From Lachnospiraceae bacterium (GTDB lineage: Bacteria > Bacillota > Clostridia > Lachnospirales > Lachnospiraceae), in assembly GCA_024685495.1 (NCBI GenBank), contig JAIKVT010000076.1, forward strand, positions 37,899 through 101,898: DNA of 64,000 nucleotides, given 5' to 3'. Below the pieces are notes generated by a model. The model made no database searches, had not been told where the DNA came from, and saw nothing but the letters and a program-made list of their open reading frames with translations. Of this stretch, positions 39,852 through 56,917 are shown piece after piece (within the stretch, counting starts at the first letter, position 1; every line of letters begins with the position of its first letter). The translations under genes were made by a program, and so were the position numbers.

Positions 39852-40667
39852 ATGAGTACCGATAGAAAGATATTATTTACGGATTTAGACGAGACACTTC
39901 TTACAACCGATAAAAAGATTTGTTCTGAAAATGTTAAAGCAATAAGGAAGATGGTTGAAGCCGGACATATATTTGCAATTAATACGGGCAGACCTTATAA
40001 CGCTGCGGCTAAATTAACAAAAGATTTAAACTTAGGAAAGAATTGCTATATACTTTCTTTTCATGGTACTAATGTCTATGATTGTTATCAGAATAAAGTT
40101 ATTAATGCTAATTATTTGCATACAGAAAAAGCAATAAAAATTCTAAAAGATATTGATAAAGAGGGCATTCATTCACAGACATTTACATTTGATGGTATAT
40201 ATACTACATGTGATGATGACATTATGGTTGAGTATAATAAATATACATTTGAACCTGTTAACTTTGTCAATGATTATGATGAAATAAAAGAAAAGAAGCT
40301 ATATAAGGTTATGGCAATTGATTTTAATGACCATGACAGATTAGATGCTTTTCAAAATAAATATATAGATGAGACACAAACTGATTTTAATACATTTTTC
40401 TCTTGCCCTGAGTATCTTGAATATACTTTAAAAGGTGCTGATAAGGGAGATGGTGTAAAATTCTTGGCAGGTCACCTTGGTATATCAATTGATAATACCG
40501 TGGCAGTAGGGGACGAGGGCAATGATATGCCTATGATTAAAGCTGCCGGAGTTGGTGTATGTATGAATAACGGATTTTTTAAAGTAAAAGATATAGCGGA
40601 CTATGTTACAGAGAATGATAATAATAACGGAGGAATTGCTGAAGTTATACACAAATTCATACTTTAA
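39852..40667 (+). CDS. Cof-type HAD-IIB phosphatase
   Basis: Motif I FTDLDETLL and motif IV GDEGNDMPM. 271 aa. Confidence 0.88.
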   Translation: MSTDRKILFTDLDETLLTTDKKICSENVKAIRKMVEAGHIFAINTGRPYNAAAKLTKDLNLGKNCYILSFHGTNVYDCYQNKVINANYLHTEKAIKILKDIDKEGIHSQTFTFDGIYTTCDDDIMVEYNKYTFEPVNFVNDYDEIKEKKLYKVMAIDFNDHDRLDAFQNKYIDETQTDFNTFFSCPEYLEYTLKGADKGDGVKFLAGHLGISIDNTVAVGDEGNDMPMIKAAGVGVCMNNGFFKVKDIADYVTENDNNNGGIAEVIHKFIL

Positions 40668-40731
40668 CAACTAAATAGTCCACAAAATGTGTGCAATTTT
40701 AGAAAAACACACAATATATTGTGGATAAGTG

Positions 40732-40760
40732 TTGACAACATATTAGAAAGATGTTAGTAT
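40732..40760 (+). promoter_or_regulatory. Near-consensus sigma-A promoter of the orphan RNA unit
   Basis: TTGACA (40732-40737), 17-nt spacer, extended -10 TGtTAGTAT (40752-40760). Confidence 0.7.
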
Positions 40761-40766
40761 GATAGT

Positions 40767-41113
40767 GAGCAACGGATTTGCTCGGGAACTTATTCAATTT
40801 AATATGCACCAAGGAGGGGATCAATATGGTTGAGATGAATTTCCGTGTATCAGAAATTTTTCACAGCTCCGATTCTGATGATTCCCGAAGACATGCTGTC
40901 GATAACCGTAAACCTCTTCAGCGGGACAGTTCGTCAGAATTCGGAAGCATATTCAAAGCTGCTTGTGACGAGGTTAACTCCCAAGCAAGTAACACACACC
41001 AAAATAGGGGTTATGTCCCTAAAGTCAGTGCATCGTGGCAACCGACTGTACTGATTAAGTAGAATTAAGTTTCGACTATGGAAAGGATCGCTTAAGCGGT
41101 CCTTTTCTATTTG
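40767..41113 (+). ncRNA. Candidate ~345-nt structured ncRNA of unassigned class (possibly dual-function; contains a 78-codon ORF 40826-41062)
   Basis: Own promoter and strong terminator. Locally elevated G+C with two overlapping open frames. Several nested long-range complementarities that bring the 5' and 3' ends together. No hallmark motifs of RNase P, tmRNA, SRP or 6S. Confidence 0.5.
41080..41113 (+). terminator. Intrinsic terminator of the orphan RNA unit
   Basis: 12-bp stem GGAAAGGATCGC / GCGGTCCTTTTC with loop TTAA, followed by TATTT. Confidence 0.8.
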
Positions 41114-41177
41114 GTAAATGTTGTGCTATATGTATTGACTATGGTATTATTGATTAGAAGTTATATATAATATTTTT

Positions 41178-41879
41178 ATGGGGAAGGGTATGAAGTATAT
41201 AAAGACTGGTAAGTTTATTGTTTCTTGTCTGATAATTTTAAGTATCGGACTTCTTTTATGTTCTTGTAGTAAAAAATCTAATACGCCTGATTATAATCTC
41301 GAATATAATATGAATAAGTTTAGTAAAGTTGATACAAACTATATCAGAAATACCGGCTTATTTATCAAGAACTTTGAAATAACAATCCCTGCTACAGTAA
41401 AAGATTTGCCTATTAATTCTACAGGAGAGTATTATTTTCAATTTGATAAAGAAGATTTTTTTACAAATGATACGAAAATAAAGCCATATCAGGAATTTTT
41501 CTTTAGCGGCAATGCCTCGATTGATTTATCATCATTAGATAAGCTTGGAACATATTATGCTTACAACAATACTGATAAAGATAATCCGGCCAAATTCTGT
41601 GTAGTCTACGCCGTTAGTATCAATACAAGACATTTATATGATGACAGATTCATTATTATAGGTGAAGACAGAATAATTAATATGAATCATTATGAAGAAA
41701 TCTGTGATATTTTTAAGAAAAATGTTGCTAATAAAGATTTATATATTGAGAATATATCGCGTAATAATACAATATATTCTGTATATGAATATCAGGATAT
41801 TTTATACGAAGTAGCTAAAGTTGATGATCAAACAACTATTACTATGAGAGTTGATAAAGATATATCCGATTGGAAGTAG
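41178..41879 (+). CDS. Hypothetical lipoprotein
   Basis: Signal peptide with a lipobox-like LLLCSC, then an Asn/Tyr-rich soluble domain. The start may be the ATG at 41190 (MKYIKTGKF). No family recognised. Confidence 0.7.
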   Translation: MGKGMKYIKTGKFIVSCLIILSIGLLLCSCSKKSNTPDYNLEYNMNKFSKVDTNYIRNTGLFIKNFEITIPATVKDLPINSTGEYYFQFDKEDFFTNDTKIKPYQEFFFSGNASIDLSSLDKLGTYYAYNNTDKDNPAKFCVVYAVSINTRHLYDDRFIIIGEDRIINMNHYEEICDIFKKNVANKDLYIENISRNNTIYSVYEYQDILYEVAKVDDQTTITMRVDKDISDWK

Positions 41880-41958: not shown

Positions 41959-42124
41959 TTGACAATATATATCAGATTATGATATATTACAGTAGTTGTA
42001 AAACAAAGAAGAGTATCCACTCTCACCTAAGCGCATTCAGGCGACTTAGTGTTAATATTTCAAAACAATTATTTTTGTGTTGATTTAAGTGGATGATCTT
42101 TTTTCGTCCACTTGTTTTATTTTA
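41959..42124 (+). promoter_or_regulatory. infC operon promoter plus candidate L20-type ribosomal leader/attenuator
   Basis: TTGACA (41959-41964) and extended -10 TGaTATATT (41980-41988). The ~130-nt leader ends in terminator hairpin AAGTGGA/TCCACTT (42087-42113) plus a T-run just before the infC RBS. This layout matches the Firmicutes L20 leader upstream of infC-rpmI-rplT. Confidence 0.6.
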
Positions 42125-42139
42125 TGGAGGTACGGAGTC

Positions 42140-44461: not shown

Positions 44462-44533
44462 GGTTCGTTGGTCAAGTGGTTAAGACGCTGCCCTCTCACG
44501 GCAGAATCAGGGGTTCGACTCCCCTACGAACTG
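44462..44533 (+). tRNA. tRNA-Glu (anticodon CUC)
   Basis: Cloverleaf read by eye. Acceptor GGTTCGT/ACGAACT with G1-U72. D arm GTC-AAGTGGTTAA-GAC. Anticodon stem CTGCC/GGCAG with loop CT-CTC-AC. T arm AGGGG-TTCGACT-CCCCT. CCA not encoded. Confidence 0.85.
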
Positions 44534-50855: not shown

Positions 50856-51855
50856 TATATATAAGGAAAAAGGATTCACAAGCTTTGATGTGGTTGCAAA
50901 GCTTCGTGGAATTCTACATATAAAAAAGATTGGTCACACAGGAACTCTTGATCCCGAAGCGGAGGGAGTTCTTCCTATTTGTATAGGTAAAGCGACTAAG
51001 GCATGCTCAATGCTTCTTGATACTGATAAGAAATATTTGGCTACGATGCTTCTTGGTAAAGCAACAGATACTTATGATGTATATGGAAATGTTACTGAGA
51101 AAAGGGAAGTTAATACTACGCCTGAAGAAGTAGAAGCAGTGATTCAGTCTTTTATAGGTGAAATTGATCAGGTTCCACCTATGTATTCAGCAATTAAAAT
51201 TAACGGAAAAAAATTATATGAACTTGCAAGAGCAGGTAAAGTGGTCGATCGACCTTCCAGAAGAGTTACTATATATAATGAAGAAACTCATTCAATTGAT
51301 ATCCCTGAAGTACAATTTAGTGTAGAGTGTTCTAAAGGAACATATATTAGAAGTTTATGTAATGATATAGGAATTAAATTAGGATGCTTAGCATGTATGA
51401 AAGATTTAGTTCGTACTAAAGCAGGTATTTTTAAAATAGAAGATTCTCATAAATTGAGTGAGATTGAAAAATTGGTAAGTCAAGGGAAAATTGATGATGT
51501 AATAATTCCTGTTGATAAAATATTTGAACCTTGCCACAAGTGGTGCGTATTAGACGAATATAAGAAATTGTGCATTAATGGCTCAAAATTACCTTCTGAA
51601 GCATTTGTTGAATTAAAAATCAACCAAATCAACATGCCAAAAAACAACAATAACGCATCGAATTGTACTAATTACGCATCAAATTGTACTAATTACACAT
51701 CGAATGATACTAATATATGCGTGGCTTATTATGAAAATGATGTTGAGAGTAATTCTTTAAATCGTGTATATTTAGAAGACGGAACTTTTGTAGGCTTGTA
51801 CAGAAAAGATGGGGAGACATTTATCCCCGAGAAAATGTTTTATGAAAATATTTAA
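50836..51855 (+). CDS. truB: tRNA pseudouridine-55 synthase TruB (with Asn-rich repeat insertion)
   Basis: GIINIYKEKGFTSFDVV...GHTGTLDPEAEGVLPI catalytic Asp motif. 339 aa. Confidence 0.95.
   Translation: MKSGIINIYKEKGFTSFDVVAKLRGILHIKKIGHTGTLDPEAEGVLPICIGKATKACSMLLDTDKKYLATMLLGKATDTYDVYGNVTEKREVNTTPEEVEAVIQSFIGEIDQVPPMYSAIKINGKKLYELARAGKVVDRPSRRVTIYNEETHSIDIPEVQFSVECSKGTYIRSLCNDIGIKLGCLACMKDLVRTKAGIFKIEDSHKLSEIEKLVSQGKIDDVIIPVDKIFEPCHKWCVLDEYKKLCINGSKLPSEAFVELKINQINMPKNNNNASNCTNYASNCTNYTSNDTNICVAYYENDVESNSLNRVYLEDGTFVGLYRKDGETFIPEKMFYENI
51655..51717 (+). repeat. In-frame 21-nt tandem repeat (3 copies) inside truB
   Basis: GCATCGAATTGTACTAATTAC / GCATCAAATTGTACTAATTAC / ACATCGAATGATACTAATATA. 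It encodes ASNCTNY ASNCTNY TSNDTNI. Confidence 0.95.
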
Positions 51856-52780
51856 TTCTTTAGATGAATTTAATCTTAAATCCGATACGGCAATTACTAT
51901 TGGAAAATTTGACGGACTTCACAGAGGACACAAGATTTTGTGCGAAAACCTTTTCGCGATGGAGAGGGAAGGCTTATTATCACTTGCTATTTCTTTTGTA
52001 GATTCACCGACCAATGTTGTTAATGAATCTGATGAAAAGAAAATTGTTACGAATGAAGAGCGTATGGCCTTATTTAAAGACAGTGGTATAAGTGTTTTTA
52101 TTGAATGCCCTTTTGATGAAAAGCTTATGAAGACTGCTCCAAAGGATTTTATAAATCGATTGGTTGACGATCTCAATATGAAATGTCTTGTTGTAGGTAA
52201 GGATTTTCGCTTTGGATATAAGGGCTCAGGTGATGTAACCCTTTTACACAAATTATCCGAAGAATTAGGGTTTAAGCTTATTGTGATTGATAAATTACAG
52301 GAAGATAATGTCGATATTAGTTCGACCCGAATACGTGATGAGATTGCTAAAGGCCATATTTTGAAGGCGAATCAATTGATGGGGCGAAACTATTTTATCT
52401 ATGGTGAAGTAGTGTATGGAAGACAAGTCGGCAAAAAAATTGATTTTCCCACAATCAATATTAAACCCTCTAAAGATAAACTAATTCCGGCAAATGGTGT
52501 CTATATTAGCGTAGTTCAAATTGGCAGTAACATTTACCAGGGAATAACTAACGTCGGTATAAGACCTACGTTCGATGATGGCAACTCACTTAGCATAGAA
52601 ACGCATATTTTTAATTTTGATTCTAATGTATATGGCAAGGAAGTGAAAATTGTCTTTCTTAAAGAAATGCGTGGCGAGAAAAAATTTAATTCTGCTGAAG
52701 AATTGAAAGCGCAGCTTGTCAAAGACAAAAATTACGGAATAGATTTTTTTTCAAATGAACATGTCAATCTTGATATTTGA
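51842..52780 (+). CDS. ribF: Bifunctional riboflavin kinase / FMN adenylyltransferase
   Basis: GKFDGLHRGH nucleotidyltransferase motif and a C-terminal riboflavin kinase (PTINI...GVY...ETHIFNF). ATG at 51842 overlaps the truB end. Confidence 0.94.
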   Translation: MKIFNSLDEFNLKSDTAITIGKFDGLHRGHKILCENLFAMEREGLLSLAISFVDSPTNVVNESDEKKIVTNEERMALFKDSGISVFIECPFDEKLMKTAPKDFINRLVDDLNMKCLVVGKDFRFGYKGSGDVTLLHKLSEELGFKLIVIDKLQEDNVDISSTRIRDEIAKGHILKANQLMGRNYFIYGEVVYGRQVGKKIDFPTINIKPSKDKLIPANGVYISVVQIGSNIYQGITNVGIRPTFDDGNSLSIETHIFNFDSNVYGKEVKIVFLKEMRGEKKFNSAEELKAQLVKDKNYGIDFFSNEHVNLDI

Positions 52781-56746: not shown

Positions 56747-56889
56747 TCGATATCTCATTTAATTTTTAATAACTGACTAATAGTTTTAATGTTAGGGATT
56801 AATCAATAATAAATTTCATACAAAAATACAGATTTCATACAAATTATTGTGTAAAAATTATAAAATACACAAAATGTTGTATTTCTCTC

Positions 56890-56917
56890 TTGAAATAACA
56901 CTATATTTTGTTATAAT
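56890..56917 (+). promoter_or_regulatory. Sigma-A-type promoter for scpA-scpB
   Basis: TTGAAA (56890-56895), 16-nt spacer, extended -10 TGtTATAAT (56909-56917). Confidence 0.55.

Follow-up and report, generated by a model that had tools for sequence, protein, structure and literature searches.

The 64,000-nucleotide (nt) stretch of Lachnospiraceae DNA analyzed here (contig JAIKVT010000076.1; hereafter the window, whose positions serve as coordinates throughout) contains a short transcription unit between a gene for a HAD hydrolase and a gene for a lipoprotein-like product, with infC beyond the latter. The initial annotation, made from the sequence without database searches, took this unit for a candidate orphan structured non-coding RNA carrying an incidental open reading frame (ORF). 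When we compared the locus with those of relatives (labeled L001-L030 and P0020), the unit looked instead like a monocistronic gene of ~347 nt (~40767-41113), which we consider likely, from its sequence and conservation, to encode a small cytoplasmic protein of 78 residues, from an unannotated family confined to Lachnospiraceae. All elements that the initial annotation had quoted, including seven pairs of complementary segments, were checked base by base and lie where it had placed them. The features of the unit are as follows.

40677-40692, plus strand: possible weak second NrdR-type box, AGTCCACAAAATGTGT, separated from the main box by a 16-bp linker and carrying four of the six key positions (T9 and T11 are missing)
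40709-40724, plus strand: NrdR-box-like 16-bp palindrome, ACACAATATATTGTGG, ending 7 nt 5' of the -35 element, at about -58 to -43
40720-40728, minus strand: perfect 9-mer DnaA box, TTATCCACA, which overlaps the palindrome's right half
40732-40760, plus strand: sigma-A-type promoter (TTGACA, 17 nt, TGtTAGTAT) with an upstream TG and 10 of 12 consensus matches
40767-40783, plus strand: hairpin P1 (GAGCAA/UUGCUC), at the inferred 5' end of the transcript
40811-40828, plus strand: strong Shine-Dalgarno (SD) sequence, AAGGAGGGG(AUC), a 6-nt spacer and ATG
40826-41062, plus strand: ORF of 78 codons plus stop, with the conserved core FRVsE ... SSDSDDS ... SEFGSIFKAACDE and one predicted helix (residues 38-54)
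40868-40945, plus strand: hairpin P2, long and imperfect and within the ORF, UCCGAUUCUGAUG (40868-40880) with CGUCAGAAUUCGGA (40932-40945)
40961-40990, plus strand: hairpin P3, GCUUG (40961-40965) with CAAGU (40986-40990)
40995-41002, plus strand: invariant CACACCAA, predicted to be single-stranded
41006-41020, plus strand: P4, a small hairpin, AGGGG-UUAUG-UCCCU (family form GGG(G)-loop-(C)CCC)
41023-41056, plus strand: P5, a hairpin of variable sequence over the C-terminal codons, which lies in the 3' untranslated region (UTR) of the type B members described below
41080-41113, plus strand: intrinsic terminator with a 12-bp stem (41080-41107, six G-C pairs), a tetraloop and a T-rich tail

The near-consensus promoter and the strong terminator proposed by the initial annotation both held up. 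In a consensus scan of 5 kb, TTGACA-17-TAGTAT ranked second among promoter-like sites, and relatives keep the -35, TG and -10 elements but not the promoter spacer; the terminator stem is likewise conserved among them, with a variable loop. The retention of its own promoter and intrinsic terminator across relatives marks the unit as an independent sigma-A transcription unit, in which transcription would begin ~7 nt past the -10 element, right at P1 (~40767). A terminator-like site on the minus strand (41021-41005) was rejected, as it is P4 read in reverse and its T-run is not conserved. The claimed enrichment of the interior in G+C was also borne out, at 0.44-0.45 over 40800-41099 versus 0.25-0.40 in the flanks. 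As had been supposed, the unit matches no known RNA class: a search of the whole window against Rfam at the gathering threshold returned only a tRNA at 44462, and the best match in a permissive scan of 40600-41250 was DUF3800-I (21.3 versus 44.2 bits, E = 0.91), a score driven by the terminator.

The comparison with relatives indicates that the 78-codon ORF is very probably protein-coding. Ten close homologues of the ORF were found, and the coding test was conducted on nine distinct coding sequences from 13 syntenic loci in rumen and gut Lachnospiraceae metagenome-assembled genomes (MAGs). Variable sites at codon positions 1, 2 and 3 numbered 13, 9 and 35, and the pooled ratio of nonsynonymous to synonymous substitution (dN/dS) was 0.21 in frame versus 1.26 and 1.75 in the other two frames. 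This frame is the sole one open in all loci, and the ORF has stayed open in 30 loci and ~67 protein clusters. The ORF, its SD sequence and its ATG are present in every relative, down to ~30% identity, with GGAGG invariant in 14 diverse transcripts. Amino-acid motifs are kept with differing codons (FRV is encoded by TTC CGT GTA, TTT AGA GTG or TAC AGA GTC), and indels 5' of ACDELK are multiples of three. The initial annotation had listed the ORF, with its good SD sequence, as a coding alternative and had stated that codon-periodic conservation would make the unit a small-protein gene. That pattern is what we observed, and together with in-frame purifying selection and the retention of the ORF in relatives it refutes the orphan non-coding reading by the annotation's own standard.

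A large structured RNA of a new class, with the ORF as a by-product of high G+C content, would agree with the lack of Rfam, Pfam and NCBIfam matches, with the significant fold energy, with the high nucleotide conservation of the whole transcript and with the rare codons of the ORF. The last of these was confirmed: G+C content at third codon positions (GC3) is 0.405 in the ORF versus 0.21-0.30 in eleven neighboring genes. Such an RNA is nevertheless extremely improbable given the three-fold excess of variation at third positions, the low dN/dS in the 78-codon frame only, the universal ORF, SD sequence and ATG, the motifs written in different codons, the broken second frame and closing helices that do not covary. 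The initial annotation had attributed its two open frames to a compositional shift rather than to coding, but only one of them is conserved. The 69-codon alternative frame (40845-41054) was rejected as an overlapping gene: it contains stop codons in L001, L002, L010 and L011, so the second open frame is an accident of the window strain.

Of the helices that the initial annotation had drawn, only the 5' hairpin GAGCAA/UUGCUC (P1) found support from covariation. The segments of its nested closing helices are indeed present in the window; however, the pairing is not conserved beyond the closest relatives, and no change on both sides was seen in 12 relatives. Among the same 12, just 68% of cells have AUGCAC/GUGCAU paired, and eight sequences have lost the first pair of UCGGGAA/UUCCCGA. 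We rejected the closing helices, GGGACA/UGUCCC and AACCUC/GAGGUU, which show no compensatory change, are in several cases broken and were not recovered in independent folds of distant members.

The protein belongs to a nameless family. An exhaustive hidden Markov model search of 1.84 billion representative proteins returned 16 family members, and a profile search of a 5.8-billion-protein collection returned 67 clusters, all unnamed, whose few source labels read Lachnospiraceae 'hypothetical protein'. The family signature is (D/E)xYF(K/R)VS ... SGSEDS ... RRKESS.EFGNIF(K/R).ACDELK ... THQ.RGY. The best Pfam-A match of the 78-residue product was FliE (12.4 bits versus a cut-off of 22.4, E = 0.18), NCBIfam gave none, and no precomputed Pfam domain was found among the 67 homologues; Pfam and NCBIfam likewise gave nothing for a 94-residue extension or for the 69-residue alternative frame. 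Conservation covers approximately residues 1-58 and ends in the only predicted helix, EFGSIFKAACDE, in which F39, F43 and A46 are invariant and C47 is nearly so. The protein has no hydrophobic segment. AlphaFold2, run with 61 sequences, modeled one helix at residues 38-54 (predicted local distance difference test score 60, predicted template modeling score 0.22), and the protein is accordingly predicted to be largely disordered with one conserved helix. This confidence is too low for a fold search and says nothing about the protein's partner.

Several further observations concern the coding region. A 9-codon upstream ORF (uORF) at 40804-40833 (AUG CAC CAA GGA GGG GAU CAA UAU GGU UGA) has its start within the conserved AAUAUGCACC and overlaps both the SD sequence and the main start. 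The uORF AUG is in frame with the ORF in L014 and P0020, where gene callers begin the protein at it (MHQGG...), and it is missing from L021, L024, L029 and L030. The proteins of L014, L024 and L030 have widely different N-terminal halves and differ in C-terminal type; at the center of the ORF, these three loci have in common a 33-nt stretch, AAGGAATCATCTATTGATTTCGG(T/C)AACATATTCA, whose sole difference is the T/C position. The ACDELK codons read GCCTGTGATGAATT(A/G)AAA in all ten sequences outside the window clade, with variants in two of them (TGT>TGC in L014 and TTA>TTG in L022).

Coding does not exhaust the constraint on this transcript. Synonymous divergence (pS) was 0.08-0.45 in the ORF versus 0.69-0.84, that is, saturated, in the adjacent HAD gene of the same cross-lineage genome pairs, a 3- to 10-fold difference. 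Between the window and L010, pS was 0.08 in the ORF versus 0.46 in rplT and 0.33 in rpmI (4- to 6-fold lower), with similar nonsynonymous divergence. Codon bias cannot account for this constraint, since the ORF uses rare codons and has the elevated GC3 given above. Conservation spans the 5' UTR, the ORF and the terminator stem, and it breaks off abruptly in the promoter spacer, in the loop of the terminator and in the flanking DNA downstream. Gene conversion or a recent horizontal spread among related rumen Lachnospiraceae could produce pS values as low as 0.08-0.12 between genomes with saturated HAD genes. We nonetheless regard it as highly unlikely, because the conservation boundaries on both sides coincide with functional elements, those same pairs having no relation in the 17-nt spacer, the loop of the terminator or the flanks, because the locus is syntenic everywhere, and because nucleotide motifs persist at 30-40% protein identity and in two reading frames.

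The last of these points concerns the 3' end of the ORF, where the family has C-termini of two types: ...G.THQ.RGY.P....AFIK (type A) and ...QATHTK.RVMTL(S/T)* (type B). The type B C-terminus is encoded by a nucleotide string, TCAGGCAACACACACCAA..AGGGTTATGACCCT, that is common to type A and read one base out of register, as a result of 1-nt deletions at two different positions. All 30 loci contain the octamer CACACCAA, whose codon offset is 1 in type A (T-H-Q) and 0 in type B (H-T-K) and which is unpaired in 10 of 14 independent minimum-free-energy (MFE) folds, the window's included. Nucleotide identity between the types is 0.72 in the 41-nt 3' segment versus 0.43 in the N-terminal codons. In L003, a -1/-2 deletion pair in the 3' motif alters the peptide and leaves hairpin P4 intact. 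Judged by these alignments, the 3' module (P3, single-stranded CACACCAA, P4, P5 and the terminator) is maintained regardless of reading frame.

Folding pointed in the same direction. The 347-nt transcript (40767-41113) has a predicted free energy of -109 kcal/mol (z = -4.57 versus dinucleotide shuffles), and full-transcript z-scores ranged from -1.0 to -7.3 across transcripts. The core without P1 and the terminator had a mean z of ~-2.2 versus -0.86 +/- 1.22 in 26 control slices of neighboring genes. When 14 diverse transcripts were folded independently and projected onto an alignment made from sequence only, the folds converged on P1-P5 and the terminator. In this alignment, 81% of cells are paired versus 75% in column shuffles (none of 500 reached 81%), 14 pairs have changed on both sides (a number matched in 3 of 500 shuffles), and slid controls were 32-52% paired.

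Changes on both sides affect all six pairs of P1, and the relatives' hairpins at this position differ in sequence (GAUACA, AAAGUAUU, GAGAUA, GAGGUGC, GGACAA). All three close-clade changes in P2 preserve pairing. P2 was also predicted independently in relatives (mean pair probability 0.35-0.55); 80% of its cells are paired, and both sides have changed in 5 of its 11 pairs. P3, of family form GCYUG/CARGY, had a mean pair probability of 0.83 over the 14 folds and is paired in 100% of cells, its third pair being U-A in the window clade and C-G in each of the remaining ten sequences. P4 has GAGG/CCUC in place of GGGG/CCCC in L014 and survives a 1-nt deletion in L003. An 8- to 14-bp hairpin corresponding to P5 follows P4 by 1-4 nt in 13 of the 14 transcripts, with a mean z of -2.56 though sequence identity is only ~0.29. 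A pairing between the 5' UTR and the coding region suggested by RNAalifold for the close clade (AAUAUGC/GCAUAUU) was rejected by eye: changes in L024, L029 and L030 are uncompensated.

Four points weigh against this structural picture. The structure tested was derived from the very sequences on which it was tested, the register of P2 varies between clades, some synonymous changes disrupt pairs, and the P3 exchange is one compensatory class that may reflect a single event. For the deep family, codon-aligned with the protein as guide, RNAalifold recovered only a 5-bp CCGA/UCGG helix, so that P2 is supported as a recurring hairpin and not as a fixed set of pairs. Even so, the low pS, the frame-independent 3' motif, the covariation in P1-P4 and the recurrence of P5 amount to nucleotide conservation and structure beyond coding needs, and selection on the transcript at the RNA level appears quite probable to us. 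To the level of sequence constraint, and to that level only, this supports the dual-function small RNA that the initial annotation had mentioned as an alternative; the low pS, the 3' motif and the compensated hairpins all speak for it.

What the RNA-level constraint is for is less clear-cut. The unit may be an ordinary mRNA for a small protein, with a conserved structure that works in cis alone and has no effect on other genes: P1 and the SD sequence would stabilize the 5' end, P2-P5 and the terminator would resist nucleases or tune translation, and CACACCAA would be a site for an RNase or a translational regulator on the small-gene mRNA itself. Every conserved element does lie within one mRNA that has a real ORF, and P1, at the inferred +1 position beside a near-perfect match to the anti-SD sequence, is typical of Firmicutes stabilizers; P1 is probably such a 5' stabilizer. 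A covariance model of the 3' module found no further copies in the window or the loci, and sites complementary to CACACCAA were not enriched in the window (8 matches versus 10.8 expected), which also speaks against a trans-acting role. However, an invariant single-stranded 8-mer that has outlasted two frame shifts and lies between hairpins close to the terminator is more specific than nuclease protection needs, and nearly the entire ORF is under synonymous constraint. We therefore hold the purely cis-acting explanation to be possible but doubtful. The idea that the 3' module is a trans-acting riboregulator is, on its sequence features, just as tentative; its partner would be a trans-acting RNA or protein that regulates, or is regulated by, the small-gene mRNA.

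The region upstream of the promoter offers a candidate signal. NrdR boxes are 16 bp long; C4, A6, A8, T9, T11 and G13 are highly conserved in them, and A/T makes up at least 63% of the stretch between C4 and G13 (PMC13584703). The palindrome ACACAATATATTGTGG has all six key positions and 8 of 8 A/T between C4 and G13, and it is one mismatch from acaCwAtATaTwGtgt. All 14 diverse loci have an equivalent palindrome with 6/6 key positions, invariably 7 nt 5' of the -35 element, although the spacers are unrelated. With a position-weight matrix built from the family's own boxes, the palindrome was the top match in the window, at 24.9 bits versus ~13 for the best in shuffled windows. In four relatives (L003, L021, L022 and L026), boxes with 5-6 of the six key positions lie at +/-31-32 bp. 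On these grounds, we lean slightly toward the palindrome being an NrdR-type operator that controls the small gene.

A number of observations tell against this assignment. NrdR sites described in the literature require a pair of boxes with 15-16 bp between them, and in the window the second box is poor (4/6 key positions) and the candidate position downstream has only 2/6; the strong box lies upstream of the -35 element and not over the core promoter; and the gene does not adjoin ribonucleotide reductase (RNR) genes, its usual neighbors being ppx-ppk-HAD and infC-rpmI-rplT. From base composition, 6/6 key positions are expected ~46 times per 64 kb by chance, so the case for NrdR rests on the full-length match and the positional conservation. 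The scanned ORFs of the window included no recognizable nrdR gene, and a search of the literature for NrdR-controlled small RNAs or small proteins found nothing relevant.

The palindrome could instead be bound by DnaA or by some other dimeric regulator, in which case the signal would be replication initiation status or something else and not deoxynucleoside triphosphate (dNTP) pools. The perfect DnaA box TTATCCACA overlapping it is shared by 11 of 14 close loci as well as by L022/L023, and an extra, oppositely oriented DnaA box (TTATCCAC or TTATTCACA) lies ~10 nt upstream of the palindrome in L005-L013. The single strong box upstream of the -35 element, its lack of a canonical partner in the window and the absence of an RNR gene nearby would also fit this explanation. 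Yet the DnaA box is lost in L014, L020, L021, L027 and L028 while the 6/6 palindrome is kept in all 14 loci; the window as a whole is not enriched for DnaA-box matches (26 versus 21.8 expected); tandem boxes at the canonical 31-32 bp occur in four relatives; and a canonical two-box NrdR-like site lies upstream of scpA in the window, which indicates that this genome uses the NrdR-like motif for genes other than nrd as well. A non-NrdR regulator is thus rather unlikely in our estimation, and NrdR remains our preferred candidate for the palindrome.

The scpA site comprises three phased NrdR-box-like 16-mers at 56837-56913, immediately upstream of scpA (56948) of scpA-scpB, with spacings of 30 and 31 bp: ATACAAATTATTGTGT (5/6 key positions), ACACAAAATGTTGTAT (6/6) and ACACTATATTTTGTTA (6/6), the last two with the canonical 15-bp linker. 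This arrangement suggests that the chromosome-segregation genes scpA-scpB belong to the same putative regulon as the small gene. The most divergent close relative, L003, has four NrdR-like boxes at 446, 477, 507 and 538 (446-553), phased by 31, 30 and 31 bp; the last, ATACAAGATATTGTAT, is the 5' hairpin of the transcript, so that the hairpin DNA doubles as a box. The next-best matrix match in the window, ACACAAGATTTTGTGC (51928-51943, 17.6 bits), is at the start of the ribF ORF (51809-52780), and ATACAATATATTCTGT (41767-41782, 15.9 bits), which is without the critical G13, lies within the lipoprotein ORF.

The usual order at the locus in relatives is ppx-ppk-HAD, the small gene, an L20 leader and infC-rpmI-rplT. 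In seven loci (L014, L020-L023, L028 and L029) the infC leader directly follows the small gene, whereas in the window a lipoprotein-like gene is inserted downstream of it; this ORF (41178-41879, 233 amino acids) separates the small gene from the infC operon in the window lineage only, and its product has no Pfam or NCBIfam match. The L20 ribosomal-protein leader (RF00558) lies at 42000-42125; with 48.2 bits (E = 1.1e-8) it falls short of the gathering score of 58.7, and the default scan therefore missed it. It encloses both a terminator-like hairpin (42086-42114) and the GTG (42089) listed as the start of the infC ORF. In one type B lineage, represented by L024 and L025, the small gene has been relocated away from infC (L024 3867-4109; L025 683-1710), and a glutaredoxin-like gene follows ~30 nt past its terminator, with maf, a nucleotide pyrophosphatase gene, intervening in L025. 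We rejected the identification of this glutaredoxin-like gene as NrdH, since NCBIfam gave generic glutaredoxin matches only, below the cut-off. The genomic context tells little about function, because the small gene always has its own promoter and terminator.

The unit represents a previously undescribed family whose elements are of known kinds. Like the dual-function RNAs SgrS/SgrT, SR1/SR1P of Bacillus subtilis, RNAIII/hld, AzuCR and VcdRP (reviewed in PMC12612679 and PMC12310071), it is short, independently transcribed and terminated, and combines a small ORF with conservation independent of coding; as in SgrS, the ORF is 5' and the candidate RNA module is 3', just ahead of the terminator. 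It has no sequence or structural homology to these RNAs (Rfam was negative), its 78 codons exceed their usual <50, its ORF runs through the candidate RNA module, and its trans-activity is only a candidate one. As in the NrdR operators of RNR operons (PMC13584703, PMC12051234), the box is 16 bp, partly palindromic and promoter-proximal, with the six key positions and all A/T between C4 and G13, and some relatives have tandem boxes at 31-32 bp. Unlike in those operators, the putative target is not an RNR gene, and in the window the strong box is upstream of the -35 element and its partner is degenerate.

The unit also recalls two systems from other Firmicutes. Its hairpin at the inferred 5' end, next to an extended SD sequence (AAGGAGGGGAUC) matching the anti-SD sequence, resembles STAB-SD elements in that structure is kept and sequence is not, although here both the stabilization and the transcript start are predicted ones. 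Known 5' stabilizers of Firmicutes include the aprE and ermC leader stem-loops and the cryIIIA STAB-SD. Sda of B. subtilis is a small checkpoint protein with DnaA boxes in its promoter. Like sda, the unit is a small, independently transcribed protein gene whose promoter has a site for a replication-linked regulator, here the DnaA box overlapping the palindrome; it differs from sda in showing no sequence similarity, in its DnaA box not being conserved across the family and in its Lachnospiraceae host.

If these elements work together, NrdR with bound dATP would repress the gene when dATP is plentiful, and induction would follow when the deoxynucleotide supply falls; P1 and the very strong SD sequence would stabilize the mRNA; and, in an SgrS/SgrT-like architecture, the 5' two-thirds would encode the protein and the 3' third would serve as a recognition module. 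As a whole, this would be an NrdR-controlled dual-function RNA that at low dNTP yields a disordered protein with a Cys-containing helix and a 3' riboregulatory module (P3, CACACCAA, P4 and P5), coupling dNTP status to replication, chromosome segregation or translation and, with scpAB, belonging to a wider replication-linked NrdR regulon in the family. We offer this composite scheme as speculation and hold it to be rather unlikely.

An apparent orphan non-coding RNA has thus become a defined, family-wide small-protein gene, now annotated as "hypothetical" and without a domain. The locus is a clean comparative example of simultaneous selection at the protein and RNA levels on a bacterial transcript; to our knowledge, few transcripts under such dual constraint have been described, with next to no cases from Clostridia of the gut or rumen. 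NrdR is usually regarded as a regulator of ribonucleotide reductase genes specifically. If the operator assignment is true, this gene would add a non-RNR member to the NrdR regulon, as would scpAB in the window.

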